A stretch of DNA of 60,677 bases, filler included, from Hausera hauseri (GCA_046269625.1; 13 parts of 13 records of this genome joined end to end with filler, not necessarily neighbours in it); one strand, 5' to 3'. Positions 27,169 through 60,677 are shown, counted from the whole stretch's first letter. Notes: a model not told the origin generated them from the letters alone. A program made the numbers and translations.

Positions 27169-28340
27169 ATTTCTCGTGTTTTTTCCCCTCCTTGAGGCAG
27201 AAACCCTCTTTTTCCTAGGTAGGTGATTACGCAGGGTCCAGGCCAACCTTGGACTTTGGACCGAACACCTAGACAAATCAGTCAATAGCGATCGAACTTT
27301 TCAAATAAACACCTGGCTGCATTCGGTACTGTGCAGCATAGTGTTCTAGCGGAAAATGTCCCGTAAGGTCCTTGGGAAAAAATCATGAATTTTTCCCACG
27401 GTAGCGCGTCATGCAATACGTGTGATTAATAAATAATTAACGAATAATAANNNNNNNNNNNNNNNNNNNNNNNNNNNNNNNNNNNNNNNNNNNNTTAATT
27501 AATTAANNNNNNNNNNNNNNNNNNNNNNNNNNNNNNNNNNNNNNNNNNNNCCATTCCACAGTCACCTGATTTTTTGTTGAGCATCTTTTGTTTTCCAATA
27601 TTCTCTCTTACATTTCGGCGAATCTCTCTAACATTCTTTTCTACGGAACTTATACCAGTACCAGCCATTTATGGAGAATCTTGTGGATCACATATTCCTG
27701 GTTGCTGTGCTGCTACAGCATTTGTGACTGGAGCAGAACTATCTTGTAATAATGACCGACAACTTGGGTGACGAGAAAACCGTCGACTTTCATTGTTTAT
27801 AGATGTAATGGATTCAGATCTTTAAGGTGACTGAATGATATCTTTTTACTATCTGCTTTGGCTGAACAAGATTCTCTTTTTCCGGGAATTTCAGCGACCA
27901 TAAATTTGTTACTTTGCAGTTCTGGTACATGTAGTTTATAGCGCAATTTTATTCCTTGAGTTTGAGTAACAAACGAATGAACATTAGGAGGTGGTTGGAT
28001 TCTTGGGCAGTAGCATGGATTGACTAACGAACAAAAATCGATTATCATCGGTAAAAATTCGTATGATAAAACTCGGAATTTGGCATTTACGGTCTCTTCG
28101 TACATAATAGTTCCTAACAGTTGCGACAAGAAATGACGAAATTGTAATCATTATCCTGTTCAAATAAAAGCATCCATTGGATTTACAAAGTTTTTTAAAA
28201 TTCTTTTTCACTTCTTTTGAGGCAAATTTTATTCTATTTTCATTAATAAAATACACAGTACCGTAAGTCTTGAAAGCCAATTTATGACTGCATAACTCAG
28301 GGCAGCTGGACTGTGATGGCGTCCGAGTCCTGAGCAGCAT

Positions 28341-31300
28341 ACTATCCCCGTAGCAGAAGTGAAGCAATAGAATTAAGGATGTAAAAGAAGCAAAAACGTG
28401 GAATAGTTTTTATGAGCTATTGCGTCTTTGTTTGGACAAGGCGTTGAATCTTATAAATATTTTGTTCTTTGCTGAATTTGCTGAAAGTGACTGTCTCGCT
28501 TTGTTTGACATGCTGTTTTAATGTTTGTTGAAGTTGTTGGGGTGAAGTTAACTTTTGATTTGACATTTCAGCAAGTTGAGAACTGGTCGGTATGTCACTT
28601 AATATAGCTGTTAGAGTTGTTGTAGGTTTTAGAGTAGCAATTTGTCGCGTAGGTAGAGTGCAAGAAAAATTGAAGGAGTGAAGAAAATTTTGTGTAGACT
28701 TAGCTGAGGATTCAGGTGTGTCATTGATAAAAAATGCGGGTTTTAAGTTGGTTATGTGAACGTTTTGTTCTTTGTCGTTTTTGAGTATTGTAACCATGTG
28801 TTAACTTAGGTTTAGAACTTTAAATGGTTCTAAGTAGTTTGGTTGGAATCCGGAAGGTGAAGGGTTTTTTAACCACACGAGCTTTTCATTAAATAGTGAA
28901 TCAGGTAAGTATGTTTTGTCACCATGTATTATTTTGCAGAAAGAGTCCTGGCTTAACTGGACGAAGTGATTTTGTTCAGACCTAATGGTTTCGTCAGTTG
29001 GTGTGTTGTCCAAATCGGTGAGTTCAAAGAGCGCACGAATTGTAGTACTAAAAAGTGCTTCAGCGTGTGCGCAACCAGTGGTAGTAGAGGTCGTGTTGCA
29101 CCACCCGAGTAAAACAAAAGGGAGAATGGTTGTCCAATTCTTATGAATTTCGGCCAGAATTTTTAGGGAGATTTTAAGTGTGCGGTGAAAGCGTTCAAAT
29201 AAGCTGTTTGACTGGGGGTGATATGGAGTTGTGTGTATATGATTTATGCCCAGTCGATTAACTAGAGACTTGCATAGTTTCGATTCAAATTGAGGACCGA
29301 ACCGACTAATCCAAATCCTTATGAATGCATCGGCTATGGAGTCTATATTAATAAAGCGCAAAGGGACGGCTTCAGATAAACGAGACTCACGGTCCATCAC
29401 TGTTAGGATGAATTGGTGGCCACTATTGGAAGGTAATGGGTCGACGATATCTAAATGTACAGATTAAAAACGAAACGTGCAGGGAAATTGAAATAAGGGT
29501 GGCTTGAGATGCTTAGGTACTTTGAATTTTTGGCAAGCCACACATTGTCTAACCCAGCCTTGTACGTCAGACCTCATCGATGCCCATGTTATGTGACGTT
29601 TGAGGAGGCGGAATGTAGCCTTCGTACATAGGTGATGTAACGAATGGATATGGTTAAATGCTATTTGTTGTAGAAAAAGTGCCAAGATTTCCAAATGTTT
29701 CCCAGGTGTCGACGTGTCCATGGCTACTCCATCGATTATTTGGACGGATTTGCACTGTTTAAGAGTTTCAGTGGACAAGGAGTTTTAGATTAATTGTTCC
29801 TTAGAGAATATTGGTGTGACACTAATAGCACCAACTGACCGTGATAAGAAATCGGCTATTAAATTGTCTGTCAGAAACATGGCGAATTTTAAAGTTGAAT
29901 GTTGACAGATATGGGAAATGGCGTTCTTGTCGACGTGATGATTGTTTCATGTTCATTACGTGAACGAGAGGTTTGTGGTCCGTTTGAATGGTGAAGGAAC
30001 GAGCGATAAGTAAATGTGAAAAATGTTTCAGAGCTAAAACAATGGCCAGGAGTTCTCTATCGAAGGTGGAATAACGGCGTTCTGGTGGCTGGAGCTTACG
30101 TGAGAAGAATTCTAGCGGTTCGTTTATACCTTGAGAGATTTGGTTAAGAACCGTTCCTACTGCTGTAGTTGATGCATCGGTTTTCAAAATGAGGTCGGCA
30201 TCAGATTTTGGGTAAACTAAGATCTCAACCCTCTTAAGCTTGTCGCGGACTTCATCAAACTGGTTAACAAATTCTGGTGTCTAATATATGAGCTTTTCCT
30301 TCGGCCCTCTTCTTAGTTGAGCGAAAGGAGCACTTAACTGGCTACAGTGTGGGACGTATTTATGTACAATATAAAATCCCGAGGAAAATACGCATGTCAG
30401 TAGTGGTTTTTGGTAGCTCGATGTTTCGTAATTGATGAATTCTATCAGGCTGTGGACTGTGTCCGTCAAATGTGATGACGTGGCCAAAAAATTGACATTT
30501 TCCTGGAAGAAGAAACACTTATAAAAGTTCACTTGCAAATTGTAGTTGTGAAAGCGTTGGAAAACTAGTCTGAGATGTTATTTGTGTTGTTTGGGTGATG
30601 CCAATGCGACTAGTATGTCATCGATGTACGGATATACAAATGGCAAGCCTGAAAGGACTGAATCAGTGTGCCGTTGAAAAGTTTGTGCTGCATTCTTTAA
30701 ACCGAACGGCATGAATGCGTATTCTAAGAGACCAAAAGGTGTTATTATGGCCGTTTTTAGATGTCTTCGGTTGCTACCGCTATTTACTGGTAGGCTTTTT
30801 CGAGAAATATGGTCAAATAGATTGTTGTCTTGTGTAAGTAATGTAATATATCTTTAATCAAAGGTAGAGGTTAAGCGTCCATGGTAGTGACGTTATTTAG
30901 TTTGCGATAATCGCCGCATGGACGGAATGTGCCATCTTTTTTGGGACAACGTGGAGTGGTGATGCCAACGGTGATTTTGATCGTTTTATTATGCCAGCTT
31001 GTTCGAGTGCAGAGAGTTCCGCTTGGACTGCCTGTCGACGGCATGGTAAAAGTGGGTGGAGTTTCTGCTTAACGGATTACGGTTTTCTGTGATGATATGA
31101 TGAAACGCCGTGTTATCCGGTCGAAATGCTGGGTCTTTTTAATTGTATAGAAACAAGACTTGACTAAATATTATTGCATTTCTTGGCTAAGGGTAGTAAA
31201 GGTTTGATTGGACTTAATGTGAGAAATGGTAGAAATCGGGCCGTCTAAATCGGACTTCAACAGAAAAGTAGGACTGTTTATATTGGTTTTATCAGTAAGG

Positions 31301-32291
31301 TTTTTATTTACATTGGTTAATGGTTTCTTCAATATTGATTTTATAGTTGAGATAGGCTGCATGATCGATTGGTTATGTTTAGAGGTCGGCTTTGTTGAAC
31401 TGCTTTTAATGATCCGACGTTGTCTACAATCTACAATGATCTTATAGAAGGATAAGAAATCAGACCCAAGTATTGGAGATTGTATGTCTGCACCGATGAA
31501 AGTTCAATTGAAAATGTCGGAAAATAGTAGCAATGTGAATGAAACTTTGTCTGTGCCGAATACATATAAAGCTTGGCCGTTAGCTGTGTATAGTTTAGTG
31601 TTAGATGGTGAGATGAATGGTGTTTTGATGGATGGTAGTAACAAAGTCAATGAGGACGTTGATTGGTTGATTAGGTTTGGATGTTAAGGAGGCTTTTAAT
31701 GTAAAAACAGCGTATGTACGGCTATTAGAATAAAGACTTTTGCCTGTGCCAGTATGTGCCAAAACATCTAGCGGCTCTATCAGTTTTTTTGGATAGTAAA
31801 ATTTGGGGAGTCGCGAGAATTACGATGGAATTGGTTATGTCGACTGGAAAACGTGCAGCCGTTGATGCAGTTTCGGGCTTTATTGATGAACCTATTATGG
31901 TAAATACAAACGATGTCGGATTTTTGAAAAGATGGTGTAAAGAATTTACATCCCAAGCAACATTTGTTGGATTGGTCCTTAAATTTTGTGTGATAATAAC
32001 ACACCATAGGTCGAGTAGGGGACCTAGTGGATCTCGAATTTTGCGATGAAGCACGGCTATGATTCGGTGTAAATGGACCTCGTCGAGGCATGGATAAATT
32101 GTCCAATTTAGAAGTTAGAGCAGAAATGGCTTGGTGTATTTCCATGTTTTCAGCCCGGAGAGCGTTTCTTTGGTTATTCAGCGCTACGATATTAGCATTG
32201 GGTGGAGTTAAAGTTGGTTGTAATGTGGCTGCGACAATAGGAGTATGGCGTGTATGTAATATTTCATATCTTTTATCAGCCAGTTGTGCTA
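28341..32291 (-). mobile_element. Gypsy LTR retrotransposon (gag end, PR, RT, RNase H, IN; degenerate) with PPT and 3' LTR start at 28341
   Basis: PYIDDILVA, KTDASTTAVG, YSTFDRELLAI, TDHKPL, HHCC zinc finger, YHPQSNSLFERFHRTLK; PPT CGGGGATAG. Confidence 0.95.
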
Positions 32292-33129: not shown

Positions 33130-34980
33130 CTAGGTGTTTAGATGAGGTGTCTCGGTTTATGATGTATCAGGTTCCTGCTGAAACGTTAATGTATTCTGCG
33201 TTTTCAGTGTCGCAGTCTGGTACCTCGCATTACGGTTGGTGAGTGACATGAAACAATATGAATGCTAAAGCACAGGAAATTGAAATAAATGCATTATTAA
33301 AGTGTATAACACTGATAATTATTTTTTGGTTTCCACTTGTCAACTTAAGTTCTTTTTGGATAATAGTGTGACATTTTTTGGATCTTTTAAAGATTTCAGT
33401 TGATGTAACTTTGTCTCTCCTCATCTCAAGTAGCGCAACGGTGCAGTGTATTTCACAAGCTGCAGTGGCTGTTGTTTTCATTTCTCCACTAAAAAGTCGC
33501 ACAGCATCGTTGTGGATCTTGATGAGGCTTTAGTTTTGCTGCAGAGTACAAGCAATGTAATACCATACTCTAAACACAGATCGAACATAGTCAATGCACA
33601 AACATCTCCGCGCATCCTTGTCTGAAACCATTAAGTGCTAGTAAGTATTTTAATTAGGCCTAGCTGAAGTTGTTTTGTTGCCTTTCTTGCTGGATGCCTA
33701 CATGGTTTTTGAAGTTAAATTGACGGTCTATTTATATGACGAGTTATGTATGAAGTTAGTCCTTTTGTAATTTCTTGTTATTTAGTCTGGCGTCTTCTGT
33801 TTCGTTGACAATCTTGAAGCCTTTGGTAAAAACATTTTTTGAACAGTTTACATATTTAATTTCCACGTGTTGCATTTGTCGCTTAATCCAATTAAATTTT
33901 CGGTAAACGTCTCTACAGCTCTGTCAGTTTCCTTATGTGTCACATGTCACATTGCTAAATGATCAGCATAGATGGACTTTGTTGTTGTTAGAACAGGCAC
34001 ACACACACACACGCACGCACGCACGCACGCACGCACACATACACATATAGACATAAAAGGATACTGCCCATAGATGACTTCTTTAGATGAAATAGCATCA
34101 TTTAATTTTGTTTGAATGATTGTGTTTGTTGATCAATACAATTCTAAAGAATTATATCCATTGTATTTATTGTACGTTTGCTATTTTGAAATCTATCTTG
34201 TATGCGTTGAGAGAATGGGAAAAGCTGATCTTCCGTACAGCTGCGTTTTCTGAAACCAGATTATTCATGGCATAAGGTGTTTTTGTTTCTACTTAGCAGT
34301 CAAATCTTGTTTTGATCACAGGCAACCGGACTTTGCTTTTATTTATTTTTTTTTTCTTCAAAATATGCATCCCTCAGATCACTTGGGATTTAGCCAATTA
34401 CTCGCATGCTTCCATTCCCATCTTTTTAAGGTTCTTGATCATTTCATTATATAATATATTAGCTCGTGGTAATTTTCTTTCTTTTTTTCCAAGTTTTAAT
34501 TTTCTTAGTGGCATGTTTCAGTTACAGCATACTTTATTTCGTGGGCCCATTTTTAGATTTTATTTTCCAACAATTCAGACGTACTCTGTCTTCACTTTGC
34601 TCTATTCACTGAGACAAACTAGCGGTTGAAATTCTCTGCTATTTCTGCCGGTCGTATCACTTCACTTTCTAAATTCAGTGATTTTTTTGATTGGTGCACT
34701 ACTTCTCTCCCGACATATTATGGAGTAACTTCCAAGCTTTATTTTCATCCTGCCATAGGTCTATTTCGCGAATTTTCGCGTCACTTCTCCTTTTTTGTTT
34801 TTCTCATTAGAAGTTTAACATTTGCACATCTTCTTTTATATCTGATGCTATCATTTTGAATTGATTGCTCAAAAGTGACTCTTCTCTGATTGCAGCTTGT
34901 ATTTCAACATTCCAGTAGCGACGATAATTCCTTGTGCAACCTCTCCGAATACCTTTAGCTGTGGCACTGAGAAGCACTTC
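33130..34980 (-). mobile_element. Degenerate non-LTR retrotransposon ORF2 (RT region)
   Basis: RGCTRNYRRYWN; SGFRKRSCTEDQL; SIYADHLA (YADD box); downstream HNDAVRLFSGEMKTT..AACEIH. Confidence 0.8.
33998..34045. repeat. (CA)n/(CGCA)n microsatellite
   Basis: Direct reading. Confidence 0.95.
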
Positions 34981-35870
34981 TTCGTGCTTATGGGAGCATG
35001 CTGGGTCATATATGGTCATATTTTCTGTTAAGGCTGGGTATCATAAGGGTAGGTTAGGTCGTCTTCTTCGGATGGTGATAGCATGTTTCTTCGGGTATCA
35101 GCATCATGTTCCTGTTATATAAGGATGAGGAATTTAACAGCGTTGTTAGGGATATTAGTGATCATCAGGTGCCCGCTCGGATAAGGAAGGGGAAGATAGC
35201 TGCGCTGTTTGGTTAGTCATCAGCAGTAGGTGGCCTGTCATATACGGAAGGGGCAGTTAACAGCGACAAGAAAATGTTGATGCTTGTAAAAAACCAGATG
35301 ACTAACCCCAAAACGACTTTGCTATCTTTCCGTTCCTTATACAACAGGGCACAAGATGATGCCTAATATCCATAACTCTCCTTTTCCTTAAACGACAGGA
35401 CACGTGATGATACTGACTAAAACCCATAACAACAGGACACATCATGATGATGACTAGCCTGACAATGCAGATATCTTCTCCTTCCTTCTATGAGTGGGCA
35501 CCTGATGATGACTAATACTCCTAACAATAGGTCACATGATGATGATGACTAACCTGACAACGCTTTTAACTGCCCTTTCCTTATATGACAGGTCACCTAA
35601 TGCTGATGACTAAGCTAACAACGCAACTATCTTCCCCTTTCTTATACGAGTGGGCACTTGATGATGATTATTACCTTTAACAATGCTGTTAACTTCCCCG
35701 TCCTTATATGACAGAAACATGATGATGATAACCGAAGAAACATGCCATCACCACCCCAAGAAGACGACCTAACCTACTCACAGCACCCTTATGATACCCA
35801 ACATTATCAGAAAACATGACCCTGTCATGGCTCAACAGGCTCACGTAAGCATGCATAAGCATGAATAAGA
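34978..35870. mobile_element. Foldback/MITE-like element with ~290-bp imperfect inverted arms built from internal subrepeats
   Basis: About 34978-35266 is the reverse complement of about 35560-35870 (e.g. GGGTATCATAAGGGT..GTAGGTTAGGTCGTCTTCTT vs AAGAAGACGACCTAACCTAC..ACCCTTATGATACCC); GATGATGACTAA subrepeats. Confidence 0.75.
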
Positions 35871-35884
35871 CGACATAAACTACC

Positions 35885-40892: not shown

Positions 40893-40952
40893 AAATACCA
40901 ATGGTAATTATACCAATTGTAATTATACCAATGGTAAGAATGCCAATGGTAG
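40893..40952. repeat. 15-bp tandem repeat (ATACCAATGGTAATT), about 4 copies
   Basis: Direct reading. Confidence 0.85.
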
Positions 40953-41179: not shown

Positions 41180-41540
41180 AAGGGTTTTGTGATACTCGGC
41201 CGATAGGCAAAATAGAACCTATGTTTTCCTTTTGAAAAGTTTACTACATTTTTAAAGAAGAAGGAATATACATTTTATTGGTTTTCGTATGGTCTAGTTA
41301 CAATATTCCAATGACATGATGATGGTCCTATTATTATTGCTAGTAATTTTGAAAATGTTAGTCCATTTAGCACCATGAAGAAATGGGAAGTAAAAACCCA
41401 ATTTTACATAAATGTTGAATAATGTATAATAAATGAATGTATAATAAGCAATGGGTGTGAGGGTAGCATTTAAACAGCACTTATTGTGTAAGCTTGTCTC
41501 ATTTGAGCGTTGTTATGGTATAAAGCATTGGTTTTCAGAG
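41180..41540 (+). pseudogene. piggyBac transposase remnant
   Basis: FQ*HDDGPIIIASNFENVSPFSTMKKWEVKTQFYINV...YNK..GV matches W-x-D-N...ASN...V.RW...YN..MGGVD. Confidence 0.65.
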
Positions 41541-41742
41541 CTATATGATAATATAATAATATATATGATAATTCCAAAACGAGAACTACTAAAGTTTATT
41601 AAAAATTAAAAAAATTGAAAATTTCGATATTCAATATTTACATACATACACATCTATTACATTATTAACGATATTTTCTGTATTAGGAGGATCCAACTTA
41701 AAATTGTCATGAGTAATAACTGCAGCCTGTTCTAGCGCGTTT

Positions 41743-42758
41743 TTATATAAGTAATATTTTTTTCATACTTTTACATCGAACTCGACGCCAAAATCCTTTA
41801 GGTTTTTGGCAGTATTTTTTATTAACCCAATTTGGATAAAGAGACCAATTCATCATCGAATGATCGATAACTACTAATCTCGATAAATGTTTTCGTTCAA
41901 CTTCTCCAAGAGACTTGACGTATTTCTCAAAGATTTTCGTCAAAAAGACATTTCCAGTCAACGTATCGACAGAAGTAGTAACATTTTCAGATGGCAGTGA
42001 AGAAATTACTTCGTTAAAGAAGTGATGATGTGGTATACATGTCATGAAGTTGAGCATAGTTCGGTAAGGTACGTTGTACAAGATTCGATCACGCATATTG
42101 AAAGAGCTAAGTTTGCATAATTGACTGTGCATTACTTTAAAAAGGGCTACATACACATGTTGTTTATATCCATACAGATTCCACCGAATTCATAGAGCAA
42201 CATGTATTTGGCAATGTTGAATCGACTATCGCTACGTAAGTGGCTTTGATATTTTTCCATTTGTGCTTGAAAGTAAGTCATCACAAACTCATACAATGTC
42301 GACTCTGTCCACAAAAGAAACATCGTGTATTTATTAATCCGAATGCATTAACGAATCAAATCAATATAATGATAAGGCACTTCTTCAGTTTTTTATACAT
42401 AACGAATCAGTCGTGGAATACCATTAGGATAAAGACTATGCTGGCTTTGTTTCATAAGCAGAGCTATTGAAACCGCTGAACAATTAGATCTATATAATAT
42501 TGGGGAATAAGAATCCCTAATGACACAAATACGACTTGATTTCGGTGGATAATTCTTGTTCTGTTGAGGATTCATTATATGGTTTTTGAAGTTCGGTTTG
42601 ATCGGAGTGTCAATATGTATCGAGTGGTTCTGGCACAATTTAATTTGTAAGCCTACTGACTGATTTCGTAATTTGATGGGATAAATGAAATTAACAATAA
42701 ATGATCCAGTAGCAACTATCACAATAAGTAAGAAGATTGTTTTCAAAAACGCACGCAT
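41743..42758 (-). pseudogene. GT32 (Gly_transf_sug, SUR1/OCH1-like) type II membrane glycosyltransferase, intronless with in-frame stops
   Basis: N-terminal TM; IPRLIRYV*KTEEVP...LWTE...FV...RFNIAKYMLLYEFGGICMD...FM...HHFF...LTGNVFLT. Confidence 0.8.
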
Positions 42759-43270
42759 TATGATGCTGTAATGTTTTTAACCAAAGTTTAATATGACATT
42801 ATGGATTATTGATAGGCTTTATTTTCACTCTTATTTCAATACATACGAATCAACATTTTCCTGTCACAAACTGATGTTTTGCCCGTGAGCTGTCACAATT
42901 TAATCTCCATTTGCGTTATCTGTACCTGCAGAATTATGACAACAGAAAAATAGGGCAAATATTCGATGCGTATTTTTACTTCGGTAGAACATCAAAATCG
43001 ACTAATGCAATTTCTTGGTCTTTGATTTTGGTCATTGTTAAATGAATTATTTCGACCTTTTCACGAAAGCATACATCGCTGTAGTAACTGTAATCCAGTT
43101 TCATGTTGTATGTAAAACATCTTTCAATTTTGTTGCGATTTAAAGTGGAATTTCTTTCTTGGCATTCGATTACGACTTCTTGCATTAAGTTTTGTTAGGC
43201 ATTCGATGTCTTCAATTCCGAAAACATACTTGTAGTCTTATCTCGGCGACTCCCGAGTCCACGGCACCAC

Positions 43271-44874
43271 ACTACTCCCCGTTATTAAATGACACCGTCT
43301 GGGCGAAAGCAAGAAGTCAAAGCAGTGAGGTGTAAACGGACAATTGAAAGAAGCTAGTTTCTATGTGATTGGATCATAAAAGTGGAAAGAATAAGTTTTG
43401 TTAGCTATTGCATCTTTGTATGGACAAGGCGTTGAATTTTGTCTACATTTTGTTCTCTGCTGTATTTGCTGAAGGTAACCGTCTTGCTTTGTTTAACGTG
43501 TTGTTTAATTGGGTGTTGAGGTGGTTGAGATGAAGTTAGATTTTGATTTGACATGTCAGCAGTTTGAGAACTAGTTGGTATGTCATTTTGCGTAGTGTTT
43601 TGAGGTGATGCAGGTTTTGGAGGAACGGGTTGTCGTGTAGGTAGAACGGGAGAAGAATTGAAAGAATCGAGAAAGTTTTGTGTAGGCTCAGCTGAGGGTT
43701 CAGGCGTGTCGTTGACAAAAAATGCCGGTTTCACGTTAGATATATGAACGTTTTGTTCCTTATCATTTTTTAATATAGTAACTGTATGAGAGGTAACATT
43801 GAGGACTTTAAATGGTCCTACGTAGTTTGGTTGGAAACCCGCAGGTGAAGGATTTTTAAGCCAAACGAATTTTGCGTTGAATAAAGAATCGGGTAAATAT
43901 GTCTTATCGCCATGTACAATTTTGCAGAAAGAATCCTGGCTTAGCTGAGCGAAATGATTTTGTGCCGACCTAATGGTTTCGTCAGTTGGTGTGTTGTCCA
44001 AATCGGTGAGCTCAAAAAGTGCACGAATTATGGTACCAAAGAATGCTTCAATAGGTGCACAACCAGTGGTGGTAGACGGCGTGTTGCGCCACCCGAGTAA
44101 GATAAAAGATAGGATGGTTGTCCAATTCTTATTAGTTTCAGCCAGAATTTTTAATGAGATCTTGAGAGTGCGATGAAAACGTTTTAATAAGCCGTTCGAC
44201 TGGGGATGATATAAAGTTGTGTGTATGTGATTTATGCCCAGTCGATTAACTAGAGATTTGAATAGGTTCAATTCAAATTGGGAACCTTGGTCTGTGATTA
44301 TATGGCGAGGTGAACCAAACCGGCCGATCCAAATCCTTATGAATGCGTCGGCAATTGAGTTTGTGTTGATGGAGCGCAAAGGGACGACTTCAGGCCAACC
44401 AGACGCGCGGTCCATCATTGTTGGAATGAACTGGTGGACGGTATCGCAAGGTAACGGGCCAACGATATCTATATAAACTGACTCAAAACGGGATGTACAT
44501 GGGAAATGAAATAATGGCGGTTTAACTATTTAACAACTTTGAATTTTTGACAAGCTACGCATTGCCTTACCCAGTTTTGTACATCAGACTTCATTGATGG
44601 CCATGTTACGTGACGTTTGAGAACACAAAATTTAGCCTTGGAACCTGGGTGATGCAAAGAATGAGCATGTTGAAATGCAGTTTGTTTAAGAGTGGGTGCT
44701 AAAAGTGGCAAGTGTTGTCCAGGTGTCGAAGTATCCATGGCTATTCCATCGAAGATTTGCACGGATTTATATTGTTCCAGGATTTCGTTGACAGGTAGAT
44801 TTTGAATTAACTGATCCTTTGAAAATATTGGTGTGACGCTAATTGCTCCAACTGACCGTGATAGGAAGTCAGCT
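43271..44874 (-). mobile_element. Gypsy integrase (337-aa open C-terminal part), PPT and 3' LTR start at 43271
   Basis: HHCC finger, ITDQGSQFE, YHPQSNG..RFHRTLK, YVGPF; PPT GGGGAGTAG then TGTGGTGCCGTGGACTCG. Confidence 0.95.
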
Positions 44875-50040: not shown

Positions 50041-50269
50041 TAATACTCTTTCAAGTTAATTACATTTTTCTTCGCTTCTGTATTTAGCCTCTGTTAAAGA
50101 AATCAGTTGATCCTGAAGTCATAGAAACTCAGCCGATTAAATACTTGATCAATCATTTGTCACATAGGANNNNNNNNNNNNNNNNNNNNNNNNNNNNNNN
50201 NNNNNNNNNNNNNTTAATTAATTAANNNNNNNNNNNNNNNNNNNNNNNNNNNNNNNNNNNNNNNNNNNN

Positions 50270-50467
50270 CACTGGATAGCAGTATATGTCTCACCAGATA
50301 TTATTCAAGTGTTTGATCCACTTGGGATGTATTACCCATCATCGCTTGTGACGAAATTGGAACGTATGCGACAACCCGTCATATACAATGATATTATGCA
50401 TCAGAATACATTGACATTTCTATGTGGGAATTATTGTGTGGACTGGCTTAGACGCCAACGTACATAA
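50270..50467 (+). CDS. C-terminal part of a Polinton adenain-like cysteine protease (missed by the ORF track)
   Basis: HWIAVYVSPDIIQVFDPLG...YNDIMHQNTLTFLCGNYCVDWL* carries the H...D...Q..CG.YC signature. Confidence 0.85.
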   Translation, partial: HWIAVYVSPDIIQVFDPLGMYYPSSLVTKLERMRQPVIYNDIMHQNTLTFLCGNYCVDWLRRQRT

Positions 50468-50513
50468 AATTGTTATAAACGTTGTTGTGTTAATAAATGT
50501 TTTTGTTGAAATA

Positions 50514-51042
50514 ATGTCTGTCTTATTTATTGACTTTGAGGGATTTGTGGATAATAACAATGAATTCATCATAAACGAGCTATGTATAATGCCAATGGAT
50601 AATATGTTTCAGCAACTACACTATGTATTTGCGTAAGTGAATTTTAGTATAGTACATATGATTTATGTTATTTTTAGGTCTACACTACATTGTTGCACAA
50701 ACAAGGCGCAAGCAAGAAATGCTTATTTGACAAACCATCATCACAAACTGACTTGGGAGGAATATAATACCCAGTTTTGCAGAGATTGGCTTATGCGAGA
50801 TATTGGGAATATATACCGTAAATAAATCCATGTTCTATGTCAAGGACCATGCTGATGGTCGAAAGAAGAAGATACTTAATAGCATATTTCCAGATTTGCG
50901 AATATATGCATATGAATGTACCAAATTGGTAACTGTACCAAAGAACGTTACATGTATTTATCGTGAACATGCTTCACACTGCGCTTATAAAGTGTTTAGC
51001 GTTATGTCAAAGTTATATTGTTACGAAATAAATGTGTTATGA
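50514..51042 (+). pseudogene. Polinton accessory gene, DEDD-like exonuclease fold, with a 45-nt GT-AG intron (50633-50677); frameshifted
   Basis: IDFEGF...FIINEL...HYVF|...YLT.HHHKLTW...YVK...KK..L...C..REH.SHCA; GTAAGT...TTTTTAG intron removes an in-frame TAA. Confidence 0.65.
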
Positions 51043-51219
51043 AAACTAGTTGGTTTTTTATAAGGTATAAAGTATATAATGAAAAAACATGTATTGAATA
51101 ACAATCACATAATAATCGTCTCATCACTGTCACTGTCACTGTAAGGTTCTGTGTCTGGTAAAAATTCATGTATGGGTTTTATCAGGAGCCCTACCCATTT
51201 TTCATACAGGCACTGGTCT

Positions 51220-51387
51220 TCAGTTTGTGGTAACAAACTCACACTTTGTTCTGCATAGCCAGCAAGACAATTTATTTCATAACCATTTCTGCAGACAGCC
51301 TATACAGAAGGTACGTGAATTACATGTTGCAATTCTCATAGTTTTGTCAAGCATCTGCTCCCACCAAATCGGACAAGTTTTCGACAT
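51220..51387 (-). pseudogene. Small RING-finger (C3HC4-type) gene, disrupted
   Basis: MSKTCPIWWEQ...TCNSRTFCIGCLQKWL*NKLSCWLCRTKC; acidic tail DSDSDE in an adjacent frame. Confidence 0.7.
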
Positions 51388-51623
51388 TTTGAAATAATGA
51401 AAGATTAATGCAAGTAAATGTCGTACTGTATTGATTTTTTATTCAAATTTCAAATTTATTGATTATATTGATCTTACTTTGTCTTAATCTATATAGTAGT
51501 TACTTAGTTTTACTTGGCCTTACCCCACCTTTCACATTACTTGATCAATAAGACAACAACACGATATTTCTATACAAGATTTATTACATCAAAAAATAAC
51601 AATAAACAACAATATGTACATAT

Positions 51624-54600
51624 TTACAGTGCCACATGTCCATGAGGTAGTGTGTGGACTCCATCGCTCAGGATCTGCCGCTTGTCGTCAATCCAATCTA
51701 GGCTCTTCTTGTGCAGTTCTACTGTTTGTATGTTATGATCCCTAGATTGGATCATTTACATTTTTGATATTATGTGAGTCTGCTCCTGCAGAACTCTCAC
51801 ATAGTCCGCAAAACTGATCTTGTTGGCAAATGTAGTTCTTTAAATACCCTTTGCTCTATTTTTGATTTGGCCACATACGTCTAGAGCATACATTTAGATC
51901 GTAGTGTCACGAAACGGGTGATGATCTTTCCATCTACCTCGTCTTTAAATTTACCGAGGACTTTCTTGCTGGTGGTTGAATAATTTGGATGATCCTTCGG
52001 GTAATCCGAGGTATCCATGTGCTGAGCCAATTGGGCAAAATCTTCATACATGTCCTCAGTATGGATATGATAGATAAAACTATCAGTAGCGATATACATC
52101 AGCTGTATGGACTTGAATGTTGGTACCATTGTATCGTAATGGAAGTGGTACATTAGGGTTTTTAATAGGTCCAATATTGCCATACCCACATATATGGGTT
52201 TGTTGAATACTAATGCCGTTTTCAGCATATGCATGCCTACCAAACTCTCAGCATATATAATGCTGCTATGGAAGTTAGGGTTGCCAATAAGCTTCTTTGC
52301 TCGCTTCCAGTCACATACTAGCTCGATGTGTATCCTGCTGCGGATATTCTTTATCGTCTTGCCAAAAACGCTATTATTATACATCTTAAATTGATCTTTC
52401 TCGAATTCGTTCTTGGCATTTGTCCGCAGCTTGGTATTCAGATCAATGTAGGACTGCAGCCACATGGACAGGCTGAAATGTAGGACTCTATGGACTTTAG
52501 TAATGCGGAGCCTATGTTTAACTGCTTGTTGGAGATTGATGTAGTAGACTACATACCTCTCCCTATTACCTAAATGACAGAGCAGCTTTTGCTGCTTTCC
52601 ATGGGACGGTGGCCTGCTTTCATGGAGGAAAGGCAGCTGTTGATGCCTTGTGTGGATGGAAGTCGGATATTCCATATCCACCTCCTGTATGTAGCCCGTA
52701 TCTCCAGTGGGATCCAGGTCCAGGATAGGGATGTCTTTAGGATGCTCAACCCACTTGAAGTTATCATATGGCAATGAGGCGCTCATTGCCCATTTATACA
52801 AGTTGTTGGCATCCAGGTAGGAAATGTATGATGACTCCTTTGATGAGTCGTATTCAGCCATATACTTGTTATTGGCCTCACTATACCGGTGAATGGCTTG
52901 GCATATTCCTCCTCTAATGCCTCTTTTGATCATAAGGATTATGTCGTAATCGTTAATGATTTGCAGCCTGATACCGGTATAGCGCAGCATTGCTGCCCAG
53001 CTCATTCCTGCAGCGGTGAAGAAATGAGCCGGATCCAAAGTATGGCTCTTCATTGTGACATTCCTGAAACTTTCAAAGGCATCTGTCAGCAGCAGCACAT
53101 CGGTTTGGAGATATATATCACTATATTCCCCTAATGTTCTGCACTGGAATGCCTGTAAGACGTTCTGAGAATGCTGGTAGTCCTCATTATTGATATCACA
53201 ATTCGACAGCTGGCAGTAAAAGTCGTTCTTGGTCGGCAATGGAGACTCATCCAGTGTTTCCCATGATGTTATATAGTCATAGGGAAACACTCCTTTCCTT
53301 TTAATTAGATCAAAGGTATCCGGAAAGAATCGCTTCGTTTCCTTGAGTTCTTCGGCAAGCAGGTTCTTCACTAAACTGTCAAGTGAAGACGACATGAATC
53401 GGAAACTATCGATGAAGCGAAGTCAAATTTTACCAATATGCTTAGTGAAAGTGATATATTTTTCCTCACTGTTTGGGATCACATCTATATTGCCAGAAAT
53501 GTTGCCAAATTCTCGGACTATGAAGTAGCTGTCATAGCCGCTGAAATTACTGAATATTACAGGCACATATTTTCATGTTTTTCAGCGAGGATTGCAGTTG
53601 TTACATGCTGCGCCCCGATATGCACCCGTAAAATGGCATTGATCCTTTACTTTTCCATTTTCCTTGGCGAAGGTCTTGTCGCACAAGTAGCATGATGTTG
53701 CCTTACGCCATTCTTCAGCTTGTTTCCACGACATGCTCATATTATCTTTTTGTTGTTTCAGCATGTTTTCAAGCTTATGAGCCATGTCTTCAAGTCTCTT
53801 CATGAAATGTGCTGCTGCACCTAAACCCCTGAATAGATATGGTCCACTGTCCAATCCTTTGGCATACATACAATACGATGATAATTTATAATATTAGTAT
53901 GCCGCTGTACTGCTATATTGAGGATTGGGACTGCATGTGTGAACTGGCCTGAGAATGGCCTAAAAGTTGCAATAGACGGCAATTGTGACTTTGATCTTCT
54001 TTTTGAATTTCTTAAATTCGATATAGTCCTCTTCGGGAAATTCTGGCCTTACACAATAATTGTTGTGACGGCACATTCTGTGCTCTTTAAGCTTGTCCTG
54101 GGCTTCTTCACCGCTGAAATTTGACAAGCATCGTTTGCATATATCGATTCCGTGTTTATGCTTTGTTATTTGGATCTGACTAGACGCTCAAAGTTCTTTA
54201 TCCAAACATAATGTTTCTTATCGCCATCGTTTAGTAGGAGCAGATCCCTATTATCTTCCAATTCAGCATCACATATTTGTAAGGGGTAGAATTTGTCCTT
54301 CTCATCCAATCAAAAAATATTGATGGACATGTTGTTGATGCGAGGGAATGTGATACACTGAAAGTCGTCGTTGTGTTGGAGATCATTACATAGCCAAATT
54401 CGATCTGCCGCATGTTTTTGATCCCGTAAGAGTTTACATAAAATGGCATACATGAAGCACTCGTTGTCATTATTATGGACATTGATGCAAGCATTTTTCT
54501 GCTGAATCTATTCCGGAAGCTGTATATATGAACTGCCTCGCGTGGGGTAGTATCTGTGTACATATATAAGCAGTCTCTTGATGGTTGCTAGAGCCCATCC

Positions 54601-55210
54601 ACTCTTCTTACCTGGCTCTCATCGGCTTCACGGATCAGCTTCGTATGCTCTTTATGCAGCCAATCAGCTATATTTGTGTTTTCCAATATGGGCCTATTTT
54701 TGGTCTTAAAGACCCTATTTGATTCTTCAGCATCGACATTGACGTATGTGGCCTCAAATTTCATATTAATCTTAAGGGCCTTAAGCTTAGTCATATTGTC
54801 CGGGAAGATTCCCTCTGTTTCTTCCTTTGTATATTCCAGGAACTCCTTGATGGTTGTTCGCTCAGATGCATCAATGACATATTTGCGGACTTTATTATTT
54901 AATGCAGAGCCATCAACTAGGCGCTGTCTCTGGCTTTTTGGTGGTTGAGCCGCAACACCTGTTGAGTCTGAGGCATCTGATTGAGCTGATGGGCGTTTTA
55001 CTCTTGCAAACTGCATTGTGGACTGCACTGAGAACTGCACTGCGGACTTTACTGTGGACTTTACTGCGGACTGGACAACTGGCCAATGCTCATTAAATAT
55101 GATCTTCTTAGACTTTGATGCAAAGTCCGTCAGATGATACTTATGGTCTTCATAGAACTGCATGTAATCCCCATCATATACAGTCTCACATCCGGGCAAA
55201 TAAAATAAAG
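51624..55210 (-). pseudogene. Polinton/Maverick PolB polyprotein (copy C), near full length, disrupted
   Basis: CYLCDK...CHFTGAYRGAACNNCN, YLQTDVLLL, YLDANNLY.WAMS, KMYNNSVFGKT, YIATDS; 3' flank conserved with copy A (4200-4320 vs 51480-51600). Confidence 0.95.
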
Positions 55211-55268
55211 ATTTCTATTGAATTTGTGGCTATAATAAATCCTCATGGTATTGTGGCAATTCTCGAGG

Positions 55269-55505
55269 TTATGTATTGTACATGTGCAATACATATATGT
55301 ACTGCACCTTTTGTTTTCCTTTTGGCATGTTAGACATTGCTGGAATATTGGTATAGAATATTTCTTTTTTCAATTTGACGAAGGATATCAAGTGTTGTTT
55401 ATGTACGTCGTAGAATTCCTCGTACGCTGTCCTGCACACTACCTCACATGTAGGGCATATATAGTATTGGATTCTATTGAACATGTGGCCATAGTATTTG
55501 ATCAT
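55269..55505 (-). CDS. Second, upstream copy of the PolB N-terminal Cys/His module
   Basis: YICPTCEVVC...FYDVHKQHL vs PGCETVY...FYEDHKYHL (55199) and YICPGCETVC...FYYDHKDHL (16827). Confidence 0.6.
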   Translation of the reverse strand: MIKYYGHMFNRIQYYICPTCEVVCRTAYEEFYDVHKQHLISFVKLKKEIFYTNIPAMSNMPKGKQKVQYIYVLHMYNT

Positions 55506-55864
55506 GGTACTATGGCAGGTTTCTGGATCATGTATTGGAGCCAGACATTCNNNNNNNNNNNNNNNNNNNNNNNNNNNNNNNNNNNNNNNNNNNNTTAATT
55601 AATTAANNNNNNNNNNNNNNNNNNNNNNNNNNNNNNNNNNNNNNNNNNNNATATATGTACGTTTTGGAAGAAAAGATAGATAGAGGAAAAGACATGTTTA
55701 TTTTGTAAGGAAAGAGAAATGGAGAATGTATATGCCATTTCGGGGGTACAGCGTGTCACTCGGGACCCGGCCGCAACCAAAATCGTTACGAGTAGGAATT
55801 CTGTATATTCATTAGAGGTATATGTTTTAAGTATAGTGGACAAATGTGAAGTTGTAGTGCTGTC

Positions 55865-56480
55865 ATATACATCAGCGTATTTATTTTTTTGAACATTTTT
55901 ATGACACTTTCATCTCGGCTCAACAGATTTTGTTGTAAAAACGGTCGGACGTACGTTACGTCGATATTACAAAATATTTGCTGCATCGCGTGCCGACCCT
56001 TCATTCCGATGATTTCTTCAAATCTGGTAAGAACGTGGTTAATCATCGATTCCGTTACTTGATGAATCAAACTCAATTCATTCGGTTTTTTGATTTCAAT
56101 ATTAAACATTTTGACAAGGGGCTTTATAGTAATGCTCATGGACAAAATAGTAAACAACGCAATGAATATGGTGATGTCTTGTACAGCGTTTTCATTTATT
56201 TTCGTGTTAGGAGGAATTAATAACGATAAACAATATGCAATTCCGCCACGCAGACAGCCATACGATATGATAAATTATTTGTTACTCTTAATACGCCTTA
56301 CATTTAAATCCAAATAATTAATAATGAATAAAATAATGTAAAAATGAATCTACCGTAGAGGCATAATAGTAAACTCCGTAAAATAAACCCAAAATACGAC
56401 ATCCAACTGAAAATTCTTTCCGAAACAGACACCTCAATTTGGAATAAGGAAACATATTCACTTAAATTAGCCAGTATTTT
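55865..56480 (-). pseudogene. SLC9A: Fragment of an NHE (SLC9A) Na+/H+ exchanger: last TM helices and proximal tail
   Basis: LANLSE...LLLCLYGRFI...FIISYGCLRGGIAYCL...FTILSMSITIKPLVKMF...NHVLTRFEEIIG..GRH, cf. NHE YGGLRGAIAF, QGMTIRPLV, DHLLTGIEDI.G. Confidence 0.85.
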
Positions 56481-56559
56481 CGATAATCGTTTGAGTCGTT
56501 TTTCATTGTCGATCCAACAAATCCATTTTGACTTATCATTACGTTCACGTTCGATTTGA

Positions 56560-57325
56560 ACGGCCTGTGAAATTGCTACATCTACAATATTATTAGCAAT
56601 ATGAAGTAATTCGACATATTTCTCTTTCCAGTGGCAATGATGGCTGCAGTCATTAAAAGAACATTCGGTAATATCATCTAAAATACTCTGAGGGTTCTGA
56701 TAAAACCTGAGATATGAACTGTAATCGATAGGATAAAACCTGGATAATTGAGATACAGTTTAAGATCAAAACTGAAATCAATTGCGGCTAATTCAATGAG
56801 CTGATTGTGAATATTAGGAAAGCAATCACAAGGTATTGTAGAATCTTTAGTATGAAACTTCCTATTTATATCTGAATTTTTATATGCTGTCGCGAAGTAT
56901 TCGTGGAGCCTTTTCTCTATTAGAGCCATTCGAATTAGAGCTCTTAACATAGCATAATCTGTGTTTATATTATCCAGTTCCTTTATGATTGATATACAAT
57001 TATTTCCAATATTTGTACAATTTCTGTTGAATAATTTCCACGGATGACCTTTGACGTTGTTTGGAAATGAAATGAATGCACCCTTTAAATGAAAGTAAAT
57101 CACATGTTTGAGTATTGTACAAAATTTCAAAACATCGTCGAATAAATCGTCTAACGTTTCTTTAAAACATGACTTATCCAATAGATTTTTGACAGAAAGA
57201 CTTAAAACGGCAATAATGTTATTTCTGATGATTAGTAATGCTTTTTCCATTTCGCAATTGTTTATGTCTTCTGACACCATTGTTATTTCGTATTTCCAAA
57301 TAAGCAAAAATTCCAAAATGAGCAA
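56560..57325 (-). pseudogene. RUNDC3: RUNDC3 (RPIP8)-like RUN-domain coding sequence, intronless and 3'-truncated
   Basis: RNNIIAVLSLSVKNLLDKSCF.ETLDD...NNCISII....N....RALIRMALIEKRLHEY...RKF...LAAIDFSFDLK matches RUNDC3 SVKTLIDRSCFETIDD, RAWIRVALMEK, AIDFSFCLK. Confidence 0.85.
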
Positions 57326-57513
57326 AAGGATAAATAATTCAGAAAATAAGGCGATTTCTAATTATCTATTTTATTTTTTTAACTTCATAACAAAATCAAT
57401 TCATTTTTATAAACCACAATTTTTTTAAATAACGCAGTAAAAACTAACAAATTTAATACAATTTTTCTGAAACAAACGGTGAGAAAACTTAACATTTAAA
57501 GTCAGGCCATAAA

Positions 57514-58510
57514 TCATCTGTGTAAACAAAATTGATGGGATTTCAGTAATAGCAACGAATTTCTATTAATTGAATTGTATCTATCATAAGTCTTTAATTT
57601 GAAATTTCTTTTGCGTCCGGATACGTGTATAATTACTGTTCTTCTATCTGTTGTGATTTCGTAATATTTGGAAAAATTCCGAACAATTATTAATAATGGA
57701 AAACCGATGGCCAAAACGCAGGCAATTGCACAAATACTACCGATCAATTTTCTCCAAGGCGTAACTGTCAAAACATCACCATATCCCACTGTTGTCATTG
57801 TAATCAGTGCCCACCAAAACACATCTGGGATACTACGAAAATGTGACATATCTGATTCGAGTTCTGCGATTTAGACAACACTTGCAATTAGAATTACGCA
57901 TATCAACAAAAAAAACAGTAACAATCCCAACTCTTTAGTACTGGCCTGCATAGTTTTGCTAAGAATTCTCAAACTTTTCAAATGGCGCGATAATTTAAAT
58001 ATTCGGAAAATACGAACTAAACGAACTACTCGCAACCTGGTCAGTGTATCAATTTGTTGTTAATTGCCTTCGCCTGTAATGAGTAATTTAACCGTCACAT
58101 ATTATGGTAGTATCGTGAGCATATCGATTATATTTATAATGGATTTGAAAAATCGTAATTTATCTGCAGATGAAAGAGGTCGAATTATTAATTCCACTAC
58201 AAACCAGATTATACAAATTTTATAAATAACGAACAAAGGATTTGTCAACTCTGGTTTAACATCTTTTTCTATTCGGGTTATGTTTTAGTTGATTTTCGAA
58301 TTACTTTGTTTATGTATACGATACCGCCACCGACGTAATAATCATAATAACTGATAACACGGCAATTGCACTTTCATTGAGTTCATTTTCATTGCACTTT
58401 CATCTATTTTTTCCAATAGTATATCGACAGGAACATCGAGGGGTTGACGAAGTTTTCCACAACTTTGATAATAATAAAGAATTCCATCGAAACTCGATCG
58501 ATTTCTGTCA
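57514..58510 (-). pseudogene. KCNA: Shaker/Kv1 voltage-gated K+ channel, decayed and intronless
   Basis: T1 [25 protein letters not shown]; S4 [18 protein letters not shown]; pore SIPDVFWWALITMTTVGYGD; several stops, frameshifts and deletions. Confidence 0.92.
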
Positions 58511-58749
58511 AAGGACAAATTTGTTTTGTCCAAAACCACTATTTATCTAGCCCCTTCGCTTTTGGATTCTCTTAGGTTTTCTGTTCATTGTACGACTCAT
58601 AAATAGACTAAAGTAAGTTCCAAATGTATGGACAAAATTTGAATCACCAATATCCAAAACCAATATTAATCGTCGACCAATATATTCATTCAGAACCATC
58701 ATGACTTGCGGCAGCTGCATTGTGGTGGCGTTCGAGTCCACGGCATCAC

Positions 58750-60677
58750 ACTACCCCTCGTTACGGAAATGATACTGTATTAATGGAAAGAAAGTAGTAG
58801 AAGACAAAGTAGTGAGGTGTAGAAGAACTATTGAAAGAAGCAAATTTTTGATGTAATTGAAACAGAAACGTGGAAAGGATACGTTTTGTGAGCTATTGCA
58901 TCTTTGTATGGACAAGACGTTGAATTTTGTAAACATTCTGTTCTCTGCTGTATTTACTGAAGGTAAGCGTCTTGCTTTGTTTAATGTGCTGTTTAATTGT
59001 CTGTTGAGATGGTTGAGATGAAATTAAGTTTTGATGGGACATGTCAGCAGCTTGAGAACTGATCGGTATAGCGTTTGGTGTAATGTTTTGAGTTGATGCA
59101 GGTTTCGGAGTAGCAAGTCGTCGTGCAGGTAGAATGGGAGAAGAATTGAAAGAATAAAGAAAGTTTTGTGTGGATTCAGCTGAAAATTCCGGTGAATCAT
59201 CGACGAAGAATGCTGGTTTTACGTTATTTATGTGTCTGTTTTGCTGTTTATCGTTTTTGAGTATGGTAACTGTGTGTGAACTTAGGTTGAGGACTTTAAA
59301 TGGTCCTAAATAGTTTGGTTAAAATCCTGTAAGTGAAGGGTTTTTTATCCAAATGAATTTTGCGTTGAATAATGAATCAGGTAAGTATGTTTTGTCTCCA
59401 TGTACTATTTTGCAGAAAGAATCCTGGCTTAACTGAACGAAGTGATTTTGTGCAGACCTAATTCTTTCGTCAGTTGGTGTGTTATCCAAGTCGGTAAGCT
59501 AAAAAATTGCCAGAATTGTAGTACCAAATAGTGCTTCAGCAAGTGCACAACCGGTGATGGTAGAAGGCGTATTGCGCCATCCGAGTAAGACAAAGGAAAG
59601 ATGGTTGTCCAATTCTTATAAGATTCGGCCAGGATTTTTAACGAGATCTTGAGAGTGCGATGGAAGCGTTCCAATAAGTCGTTCGACTGGGGATGATATG
59701 GAGTTGTGTGTATATGATTTATGCCCAGTCGATTAACTAGAAATTTGAATAGGTTCGATTCGAATTGGGAATCTTGGTCAGTAATTATGTAGCGAGGTGA
59801 ACCGAACCGGCTAATCCAAATCCTTATGAAAGCGTCGGCAATGGCATCTGTATTGATGGAGCGCAAGTGGACGGCTTCAGGCCAACGAGACGAGCGGTCC
59901 ATCATTGTTAATATGAATTGGTGGCCGTTATCGGAAGGTAATGTGCCAACGATATCTATATGAACTGACCCAAAACGGGATGTACATGGGAAATGAAATA
60001 ATGATGGTTTAAGATATTATCAACTTTGAATTTTTGACAAGCTACACATTGCCTAACTTAACTCTGTACATGGCCATGTTACGTGGCGTTTGAGAAGACG
60101 GAATGTAGCCTTGGAACCTGTATGATACAAAGAATGAACATGTTGAAATACAGTTTGTTGAAGAGAAGGTGCTAAAATTGGCAAATGTTGTCCAGGTGTC
60201 GAAGTATCCATGGCTATTCCATCGATGATTTTCATTGTTTCAGAATTTCGTTGGAAGGTGAATTTTGGATTAACTGGTCTTTTGAAAATATTGGTGTGAC
60301 GCTAATTGCTCCAACTGACTGTGATAGGAAATCAGCTATTAAATTATCTGTCCCTGATATATGGCAAATTTTAAAGTTAAATGTTGAAAGATAGGATATA
60401 TGGCGTTCTTGTCGCAGTGATGGCTGTTTCATTGTCATTACGTGAACGAGAAGGTTGTGGTCAGTTTGAATGGTGAAGAAGCGAGCGATAAGCAAGTGTG
60501 AACATTGTTTTAGAGCTAAAACAATAGTCAAGAGTTTTCTATCGAATGTAGAATAGCGGCGTTCTTGTTGCTGCAGCTTGCGCGAAAAAAATTCTAACGA
60601 TTCATTTATCCCTTGGGATATTTGATGAAGAACCGCTCCTACTGCTGTAGTTGATGCATCGGTTGTTAAAATGAGTT
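58750..60677 (-). mobile_element. Gypsy RNase H-integrase region, PPT and 3' LTR start at 58750
   Basis: TDASTTAVG, RYSTFDR, TDH, MDRSSRWPEAV, YHPQSN..ERFHRTLK; PPT GAGGGGTAG then TGTGATGCCGTGGACTCG. Confidence 0.95.

Follow-up and report, generated by a model that had tools for sequence, protein, structure and literature searches.

The window analysed here, 60,677 nucleotides (nt) of Hausera hauseri DNA, holds copies of a CsRn1-related Ty3/Gypsy retrotransposon that probably carries pieces of host messenger RNA (mRNA) in two places. In the reading that we consider fairly probable, the interior of the long terminal repeat (LTR) and the leader in front of Gag are both patchworks of sense host-mRNA pieces acquired by template switching. 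The leader would form a single frame from an ATG in the primer-binding site (PBS) through a predicted ubiquitin-like domain (Ubl) into Gag, which is likely freed after a Gly-Gly. The bounds of the LTR, the sense orientation and spliced state of the cargo, the open frame from the PBS ATG, its continuity into the Gly-Gly domain and the near-neutral drift of the cargo were observed. The window consists of 13 unrelated contigs joined by spacers of 44 N, 12 nt and 44 N, and the genome of the same species (869 Mb in 909,086 contigs) was searched for further copies.

Boundaries of the LTR and the cargo inside it

The first-pass annotation of the window had placed junctions between a polypurine tract (PPT) and an LTR at 2828, 7469, 28341, 43271 and 58750, and all five are present on the minus strand, each a purine tract followed by TG. 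Treating them as copies of one kind holds for 28341, 43271 and 58750, but not for 2828 and 7469, which belong to sister families. The similarities described between them were borne out. The 58750 and 28341 tips, said to share about 50 nt, align over 48 nt at 79%; the alignment of the 43-kb and 59-kb copies enters the LTR by the expected 18 nt (to 43254); the 7469 tip has 9 nt in common with that at 43271, as proposed; and the internal regions upstream of the 28-, 43- and 59-kb tips, whose integrases had been called alignable, are 78-83% alike over 1.5-1.9 kb.

The conserved tip is the true 5' end of a Ty3/Gypsy LTR of 0.4-1.8 kb. Exact matches to the PPT plus tip numbered 51 in the genome, and the tip behind a non-G dinucleotide was matched 56 times, with no match to the reversed-pattern control in either search; the upstream flank was unrelated in 38 of 40 tips fetched from the second set. 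The family pattern of the tip breaks off at 13-45 nt (median 36, 99 tips), and with a 301-nt query across the 58750 junction nearly all of the 40 matches scored, from 153 candidates, end 13-53 nt inside the LTR. The 92 tips with at least 200 nt of downstream sequence fell into 55 clusters, 15 of which mix PPT-preceded and flank-preceded LTRs. Since the same cargo stands in both positions, it is LTR and not flanking DNA; the variable DNA is part of the LTR and is lineage-specific, not strictly copy-specific.

These results modify the earlier picture of a conserved tip followed by different sequence in every copy. The divergence is real, but the downstream sequence is not unique to each copy: besides the clustering, about 40 places in the genome repeat the block that comes first behind 43271 (40 scored out of 65 candidates), and the term copy-specific cargo overstates the case, as blocks are inherited and reshuffled among copies. 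Nor do the breaks mark a fixed capture point. They form a zone with a spread of about 30 nt, more plausibly the border of a cis element that is kept. The fold-back proposed for the 58750 tip exists but is weak (-7.7 kcal/mol), and 17 of the 99 tips leave the pattern before nt 30, where its second arm ends.

The right end of the LTR is AT-rich and mostly closes in TAACA; next come A or T and then TGGTGTCAGA. In 13 copies the distance from the tip to a PBS, which is complementary to the 3' ends of tRNA-Leu(CAG) genes of the same genome, is 372-1470 nt; as a rule the PBS is kept for no more than its first 10-12 nt, after which the sequence diverges anew. Two flank-preceded (solo) LTRs, one with an N gap, end in CA and a 5-bp duplication. 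The features of Ty3/Gypsy elements were all found, namely gag followed in order by protease (PR), then reverse transcriptase (RT), RNase H (RH) and integrase (IN), a PPT before a TG...CA LTR, a PBS behind the LTR and a target-site duplication. A U5 profile was poor at locating LTR ends because these are barely conserved. About half of the long PPT-preceded contigs run on into a PBS; no terminal overlap was found in the five such PPT-LTR-PBS contigs tested, and they may be true tandems or collapsed identical LTR pairs.

Other extents of the LTR were considered and rejected. An LTR consisting of the 30-bp tip alone is ruled out by conserved bases beyond nt 30, by the cargo common to PPT- and flank-preceded tips and by ends with a PBS or duplication 372-1761 nt away. 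A GC-rich motif at the start of gag is not the right end either: 18 of 18 pattern matches and 22 of 24 similarity matches to it continue into gag, and none into flank. Extension of the LTR into gag itself is ruled out by 40 scored gag copies, which lack a common endpoint. As a separate observation, one copy (L123:169-510) has lost the LTR interior, PBS and leader, so that its tip and gag-start motif stand just some 67 nt apart, and the copies at L091, L096, L105 and L138 have inserted into further copies or into different Gypsy elements, with an inverted pair among them.

Within the window, the 59-kb copy (minus strand) has an integrase in two pieces (58893..60016, 80-81% amino acid (aa) identity to the 43-kb integrase), a PPT (58751..58764, called from sequence) and an LTR of 1470 nt (57281..58750, TG...AATAACA) that ends directly before the PBS. 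The first 36-40 nt or so of this LTR are the conserved tip and the remainder is variable; over the first 946 nt the LTR matches a flank-preceded one on C230395 at 93% identity. It carries Kv potassium-channel cargo in the sense orientation (57514..58542, minus strand), spread over four frames, with Pfam BTB_2, Ion_trans and Ion_trans_2 matched on four sense open reading frames (ORFs). The 43-kb copy, also on the minus strand, has an integrase at 43405..44529 (Pfam rve) and an LTR of about 1761 nt (41511..43271) with a probable end, called by eye, at CATAACA followed by non-PBS flank; sense cargo at 41746-42776 is glycosyltransferase-like (Pfam Gly_transf_sug, E 4e-4, below cut-off). The LTR start of the 28-kb copy (27551..28341, minus strand), cut by a contig end, holds two sense ORFs without a Pfam match.

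We scanned all 249 ORFs of at least 55 aa from 86 tip-downstream regions against Pfam. Matches were obtained for 14 of 157 sense ORFs and for 2 of 92 antisense ORFs, both of the latter below cut-off, which supports host-mRNA cargo inside the LTR; the sense-strand bias, for which the first-pass annotation had proposed a test, fits capture from mRNA. Eight genes are represented (Kv channel, DUF5578, LITAF, PHD, BTB, DPP3, phosphatase-like and transglutaminase-like), and most LTR cargo matches no recognised family. In the LTR on C56788, a DPP3 piece joins a parental exon ending before GTAAG exactly to the exon after TTGTAG; this cargo derives from spliced mRNA. As read from its sequence, the LTR behind the roughly 36 conserved nt is a patchwork of sense host-mRNA pieces common to lineages. 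It may also contain recycled leader cargo, because cargo blocks occur in both slots.

The leader and the predicted ubiquitin-like domain ahead of Gag

A second cargo slot, in frame with Gag, is apparent directly behind the PBS. The first-pass annotation had the 59-kb tip right but overlooked the LTR end at 57281 and this slot with its RUN and Na/H-exchanger pieces. The PBS of the 59-kb copy (57270..57280, minus strand, complementary to the 3' end of tRNA-Leu(CAG) genes) includes an ATG and reads MVSE. From it 200 codons are open across a RUN-domain fragment (56678..57280; Pfam RUN, E 3.5e-14), and the PBS-RUN junction recurs in C69495 at 92%. A Na/H-exchanger fragment follows (55786..56274; Pfam E 0.0013, and E 2.7e-11 in L257), a block with 47 matches in the genome that is common to many copies, and then the GC-rich gag-start motif with the start of the Ubl (55651..55782, placed by motif conservation), where the contig ends. 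The 141 nt preceding this motif lead into it in 22 of 24 copies.

The PBS opens with ATG (TTG in a few copies) and reads MVS(E/D). Its frame is open for at least 100 codons in 11 of 22 copies, compared with 1 of 44 for the two other frames. In new copies, found by a pattern ending at the PBS, the corresponding figures are 7 of 10 and 0 of 20, and for both sets together 18 of 32 copies and 1 of 64 other frames. Leader ORFs of at least 90 aa (n = 117; where no PBS was visible the 2 kb before the gag-start motif were used, which may include other DNA) matched Pfam in 32 of 93 sense versus 0 of 24 antisense cases, with 20 kinds of gene represented. They often join at least two host domains, such as LRR with sterol-sensing, polB with CCT, or helicase with Na/H exchanger. 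In C67018, flank and a 1159-nt LTR are followed by 603 open codons from the PBS ATG to the domain before Gag; 840 codons are open from this ATG in C69495 and 874 in C843635, and a 560-aa ORF in C825416 runs from cargo through the Gly-Gly into Gag. In a TTC30-like cargo a deletion has removed 1.35 kb of the parental sequence, with the frame kept.

Counted as the minimum per kb of sense strand, frame breaks came to 2.81 for 52 leaders, 2.73 for 58 gag-pol blocks and 7.30 for 23 LTR interiors, with antisense strands at about 10 and shuffles at 9.5-13. Because the rate in the leader is close to that of gag-pol, the leader looks to have been as open as gag-pol at insertion. Simple pairwise ratios of nonsynonymous to synonymous substitution rates (dN/dS), from which band-3 and DPP3 cargo were left out for wrong-frame rows, were 0.79 (12 copies), 0.61 (18 copies) and 0.73 (5 copies) in three blocks of cargo, as against 0.21-0.33 in Gag, RT and IN (Gag 0.23, IN 0.21, RT 0.29), which have stop rates similar to those of the cargo. 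Since cargo dN/dS is high beside these proteins and stop rates are similar, selection seems to act on the frame and much less on the cargo protein.

Two one-sided exon boundaries are read through in a BRO1 leader cargo. At two junctions the PBS and donor sequence share 4 nt and 3 nt, possible microhomologies. Searches of the genome found no parental gene for the band-3, helicase, THOC5 and DUF5578 cargo, the matches being other element-like copies. Two observations stand beside these. A Helicase_C fragment, RIG-I/Dicer-like by eye, is present in at least five copies (L257:1426-2448 and L269-L272), and the last leader block before the gag-start motif at L205 and L206 matches an ankyrin-repeat-like ORF, a probable further source of cargo.

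The Gag core is preceded by at least one domain of about 75 aa that ends in L-x-G-G. The best model (predicted local distance difference test (pLDDT) score of 82) is a beta-grasp with ISG15, SUMO and ubiquitin as top Foldseek matches at a template modelling (TM) score of about 0.77, and the domain is predicted to have the ubiquitin fold with a terminal Gly-Gly. At L079, L200, L232 and L234 two different ubiquitin-like domains stand in tandem before Gag, and three sequence types occur in the family.

A search of 1.84 billion representative sequences listed 150 relatives of this Gag. The 15 relatives compared have Gag cores 24-51% identical to this family; they are sequences from ENA and JGI contigs (10 looked up), taken as proteins alone and some perhaps from the same organism. 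Double CHCC motifs occur in 43 of 154 Gag proteins examined. An extension of at least 60 aa is found in 28 of the 43, and 27 of these 28 carry xGG shortly before the Gag core. Among 29 long relatives chosen for a Pfam scan, seven matched ubiquitin, most strongly P0039 (E 3.7e-23), a near-authentic ubiquitin, and five have upstream host domains (CNOT1 with Rrp44, cohesin HEAT, histone H2A, 5'-nucleotidase and RING). MVSE stands near the start of two of the Gag relatives. The residue after the Gly-Gly is not proline in 28 of 29 parsed relatives, and the remaining one reads GG-G-P. The cargo-Ubl-Gag layout appears to be common to distant Gag relatives. Separately, L245:5041-7290 contains a more distant double-CHCC Gag, close to the public protein P0031; its open frame spans 750 aa, and RLKGG precedes the core.

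Candidate replication cycle, alternatives and related systems

We propose that during minus-strand synthesis the reverse transcriptase would switch to co-packaged host mRNA or to sibling RNA. Only products with a tip, an LTR end, a PBS and a gag-start motif would replicate, and because of this the breaks would pile up just inside the retained elements, as apparent fixed points. Ribosomes would begin at the PBS ATG and have to reach Gag, so that only sense, in-frame cargo would persist in the leader; the cargo of the LTR, presumably untranslated, would for that reason decay faster. A host deubiquitinase or the element's protease would then cut after the Gly-Gly and free Gag, and this putative cut would make Gag indifferent to what lies upstream. 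The nearest analogy for such a linker is the ubiquitin inserts of pestiviruses, after which host proteases cut. The tip may be kept beyond the integrase site because the PPT plus tip is predicted to pair with the gag-start motif, with z scores of -1.0 to -4.6 in 15 of 17 copies scored.

Several observations weigh against this account. No run of 100 open codons follows the PBS in 14 of the 32 copies, three of which are cut by contig ends. Copies share junctions, so the frame counts are not independent; the first set contains 10 independent junctions, nine of them in frame (p 4e-4). Some cargo has a lower dN/dS, 0.39 for RUN (two copies) and 0.55 for Kv (five copies). Only one splice junction, that of DPP3, is fully two-sided, and most parents were not located. 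Regarding the Ubl, the 24 domain rows were chosen by their Gly-Gly pattern, which makes the invariance of the Gly-Gly one of construction; the family Ubl falls below the Pfam cut-off (best E 0.044; 3 of 24) and has no PDB sequence match, and only two of five models exceed a pLDDT of 70 (82, 71, 58, 57 and 52). The predicted tip-motif pairing has no cognate advantage (-30.8 versus -29.9 kcal/mol), and no covariation was found in the copies scored. Finally, an in-frame ATG lies at the gag-start motif in many copies, from which Ubl-Gag could arise without cargo, and a transcription start or splice behind the cargo is a possible alternative.

The last of these points bears on a different account in which capture still proceeds by template switching, but the leader is a separate upstream ORF held open to avoid nonsense-mediated decay or silencing; Ubl-Gag would start from the motif ATG, with the Ubl as an expression or folding leader. 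We regard this as possible though unlikely. The extension is shorter than 90 aa in 121 of the 154 Gag relatives, and the 571-aa leader ORF of C727656 stops, with no gag detected behind it, both as such an arrangement would have it. However, the motif ATG is GTG or ATA in several copies, leader ORFs cross the motif stop-free in C67018, C69495, C825416, C624064 and C902200, and public proteins have cargo, Ubl and Gag in a single chain.

It is improbable that the cargo is selected for an effect on the host, whether as dominant-negative fragments or as small RNAs against host genes, a role with precedent in Drosophila telomeric elements (PMC13534243). Silencing- or defence-related cargo does occur (Tudor, Sin3, Not1, THOC5 and the Helicase_C fragment) and the Na/H-exchanger block is very widespread. 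Taken as a whole, though, the cargo is a broad housekeeping sample that is truncated, overwritten and drifting at a dN/dS of 0.6-0.8, and a small-RNA role would not need an open frame.

Largely refuted, and very improbable, is an origin at the DNA level by ectopic recombination or repair, by insertion in host genes or through 'tinkering loci' (described in bioRxiv 10.64898/2026.08.09.743762), with the long frames being young coding fragments. Because some host genes are intron-poor (TopBP1, TTC30-like), the lack of introns says little for most cargo; what opposes such an origin is the strictly sense orientation, the locking of the frame to the PBS ATG, a splice junction that is exact and cargo common to LTRs in both positions. 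Least credible is an artefact of chimeric contigs in a fragmented short-read assembly: despite the 909,086 contigs, and despite the tandems and solo LTRs that a collapsed identical LTR pair could yield, the tip-Kv, PBS-RUN, PBS-PTR2 and polB-CCT junctions are found again in copies that differ by 2-13%, single contigs of a public run (perhaps from the source sample) span three junctions of the 840-codon ORF, and random joins would lose the frame.

Capture by template switching with a translated leader works like LTR-mediated retroposition, but keeps gag-pol and uses two other slots, and there is a real chance that it is a distinct system. In Tan et al. 2016 (PMC5131818), mRNA pieces in animals are likewise joined to LTR elements, there at microsimilarities, to which the 3-4 nt at two PBS junctions may correspond; multi-gene chimeras arise, copying rounds are repeated and a recurrent switch site is present in BLASTOPIA. 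That cargo replaces internal ORFs of sporadic copies, whereas here cargo is the normal state of the family, occupies the LTR interior and the stretch before a gag-pol that is kept, and has its leader frame-locked via the Gly-Gly domain. Spliced-mRNA cargo of the Tan type was found at one two-sided and two one-sided junctions; replacement of internal ORFs was seen only in the 7469 copy, gag-pol being kept behind the cargo in most copies.

A relation to the CsRn1 clade (PwRn1, AgCR; PMC2582038) is suggested by similarity of Gag to DUF7041 proteins. Common to both are the CHCC Gag signature (Cx2Hx9Cx3C, two motifs in each of two window Gags), DUF7041-bearing relatives and the PR-RT-RH-IN order. 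The clade has a tRNA-Trp primer and a 4-bp duplication, whereas the family described here has tRNA-Leu and 5 bp (two cases), both outside the clade definition, and differs further in its two CHCC motifs, the ubiquitin-like domain before Gag and cargo-filled LTRs.

Among other systems, the planarian giant Gypsy element Burro/GYPSM1 (PMC6431247) also holds host-like domains, including a Ubi2/SUMO-like one, in frame in its Gag polyprotein, but with Gag first, CCHC knuckles and largely fixed domains downstream; here the cargo is upstream, copy-variable and drifting. In cytopathic pestiviruses (PMC2850149, PMC13517609), inserts acquired from host RNA are often mosaic and place ubiquitin immediately in front of a viral protein. 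These are rare dead-end events of an RNA virus, whereas the present feature is heritable and clade-wide in a retrotransposon. The Drosophila telomeric retrotransposons (PMC13534243) are likewise active retroelements that repeatedly capture host-gene fragments; they are non-LTR elements with 140-235 bp of PIWI-interacting RNA (piRNA) pathway genes and a small-RNA mechanism, in contrast to kilobases of general genes in frame. In Ty1, the CYC5:CYC3 interaction (PMC4974528) similarly pairs sequence downstream of the PBS with the RNA 3' end, unlike the present pairing, which is only predicted and without covariation.

In listings of an open-licence library we found no account of a retrotransposon Gag preceded by a ubiquitin-like domain and by host cargo that varies but stays in frame, nor of U3 as a place where mRNA is captured; the search did not extend to supplements, repeat databases or subscription papers, which may hold one. 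We see an even chance that the arrangement is a ubiquitin-insulated cargo bay of an old and diverse double-CHCC Gypsy clade, in which a cleavable linker would let any host fragment be translated ahead of Gag cost-free, with a second bay in the LTR. LTR elements are known to capture genes now and then, as an accident fatal to the carrier; in this family, which keeps gag-pol, capture appears instead to be the steady state, with chimeras already filtered for sense orientation and reading frame, the two points at which retro-chimeras usually fail. If this is true, every replication cycle would sample, fuse and express in-frame host-protein chimeras, with the LTR fixed only at about 36 nt and its end. 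The family would amount to an exon-shuffling machine that propagates itself and has its own filter for reading frame, a standing factory of fusions and a route to the mass production of fused host proteins. Fusion to ubiquitin as insulation would be a design principle for a retrotransposon Gag, and the LTR illustrates how small a share of it needs fixing. A practical consequence is that annotation will take such copies for bizarre fusion genes of the host, while repeat libraries built on families will miss their LTRs.

Sister elements and other features of the window

The Gag of the 28-kb copy carries its double CHCC motif (Cx2Hx9Cx3C) at 31855..32001 (minus strand). A sister element on the plus strand has its PBS at 17390, sense cargo ORFs at 17409-20544 and RLRGG at 20891 before Gag (17390..20905), followed by Gag with a double CHCC motif at 21733-21879, a protease and the start of RT (20906..23082). 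Its cargo comprises a KAP fragment (Pfam KAP, E 3e-26) and a 639-aa ORF of no recognised family. The 639-aa and 132-aa sense leader ORFs at 17409-19692 (plus strand) had no Pfam or Atlas match, and both also occur in several other copies.

The two remaining PPT/LTR junctions noted for the window are genuine. The one at 2828 belongs to a sister family (2828..4073, minus strand) with an integrase of 61% aa identity to the 43-kb integrase, a PPT and a different tip. The one at 7469 ends an internally deleted sister copy (7469..8793, minus strand) that has no integrase and instead consists of a Ubl end (RICGG), a gag stub, Cse1 fragments (Pfam Cse1, E 1.6e-7), the PPT and the tip.

The window also contains three decayed Polinton-like copies with a protein-primed DNA polymerase B, 80-84% alike (4174-6833, 13113-17054 and 50270-55550, minus strand). 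A TopBP1-like gene at 45737-50055 (minus strand) has very long ORFs (693 and 345 aa) and is apparently intron-poor; a word-index search gave no homolog for it. A Tc1-like transposase remnant at 10880-12378 is flanked by inverted repeats of about 160 nt and adjoins an IQSEC-type PH fragment (9811-10659). A second Gypsy family with a CCHC Gag shows a head-to-tail duplication at 85% identity (36604-40716, plus strand), and nested direct and inverted repeats of 80-300 nt at 34977-35859 resemble a foldback or miniature inverted-repeat transposable element (MITE) cluster.

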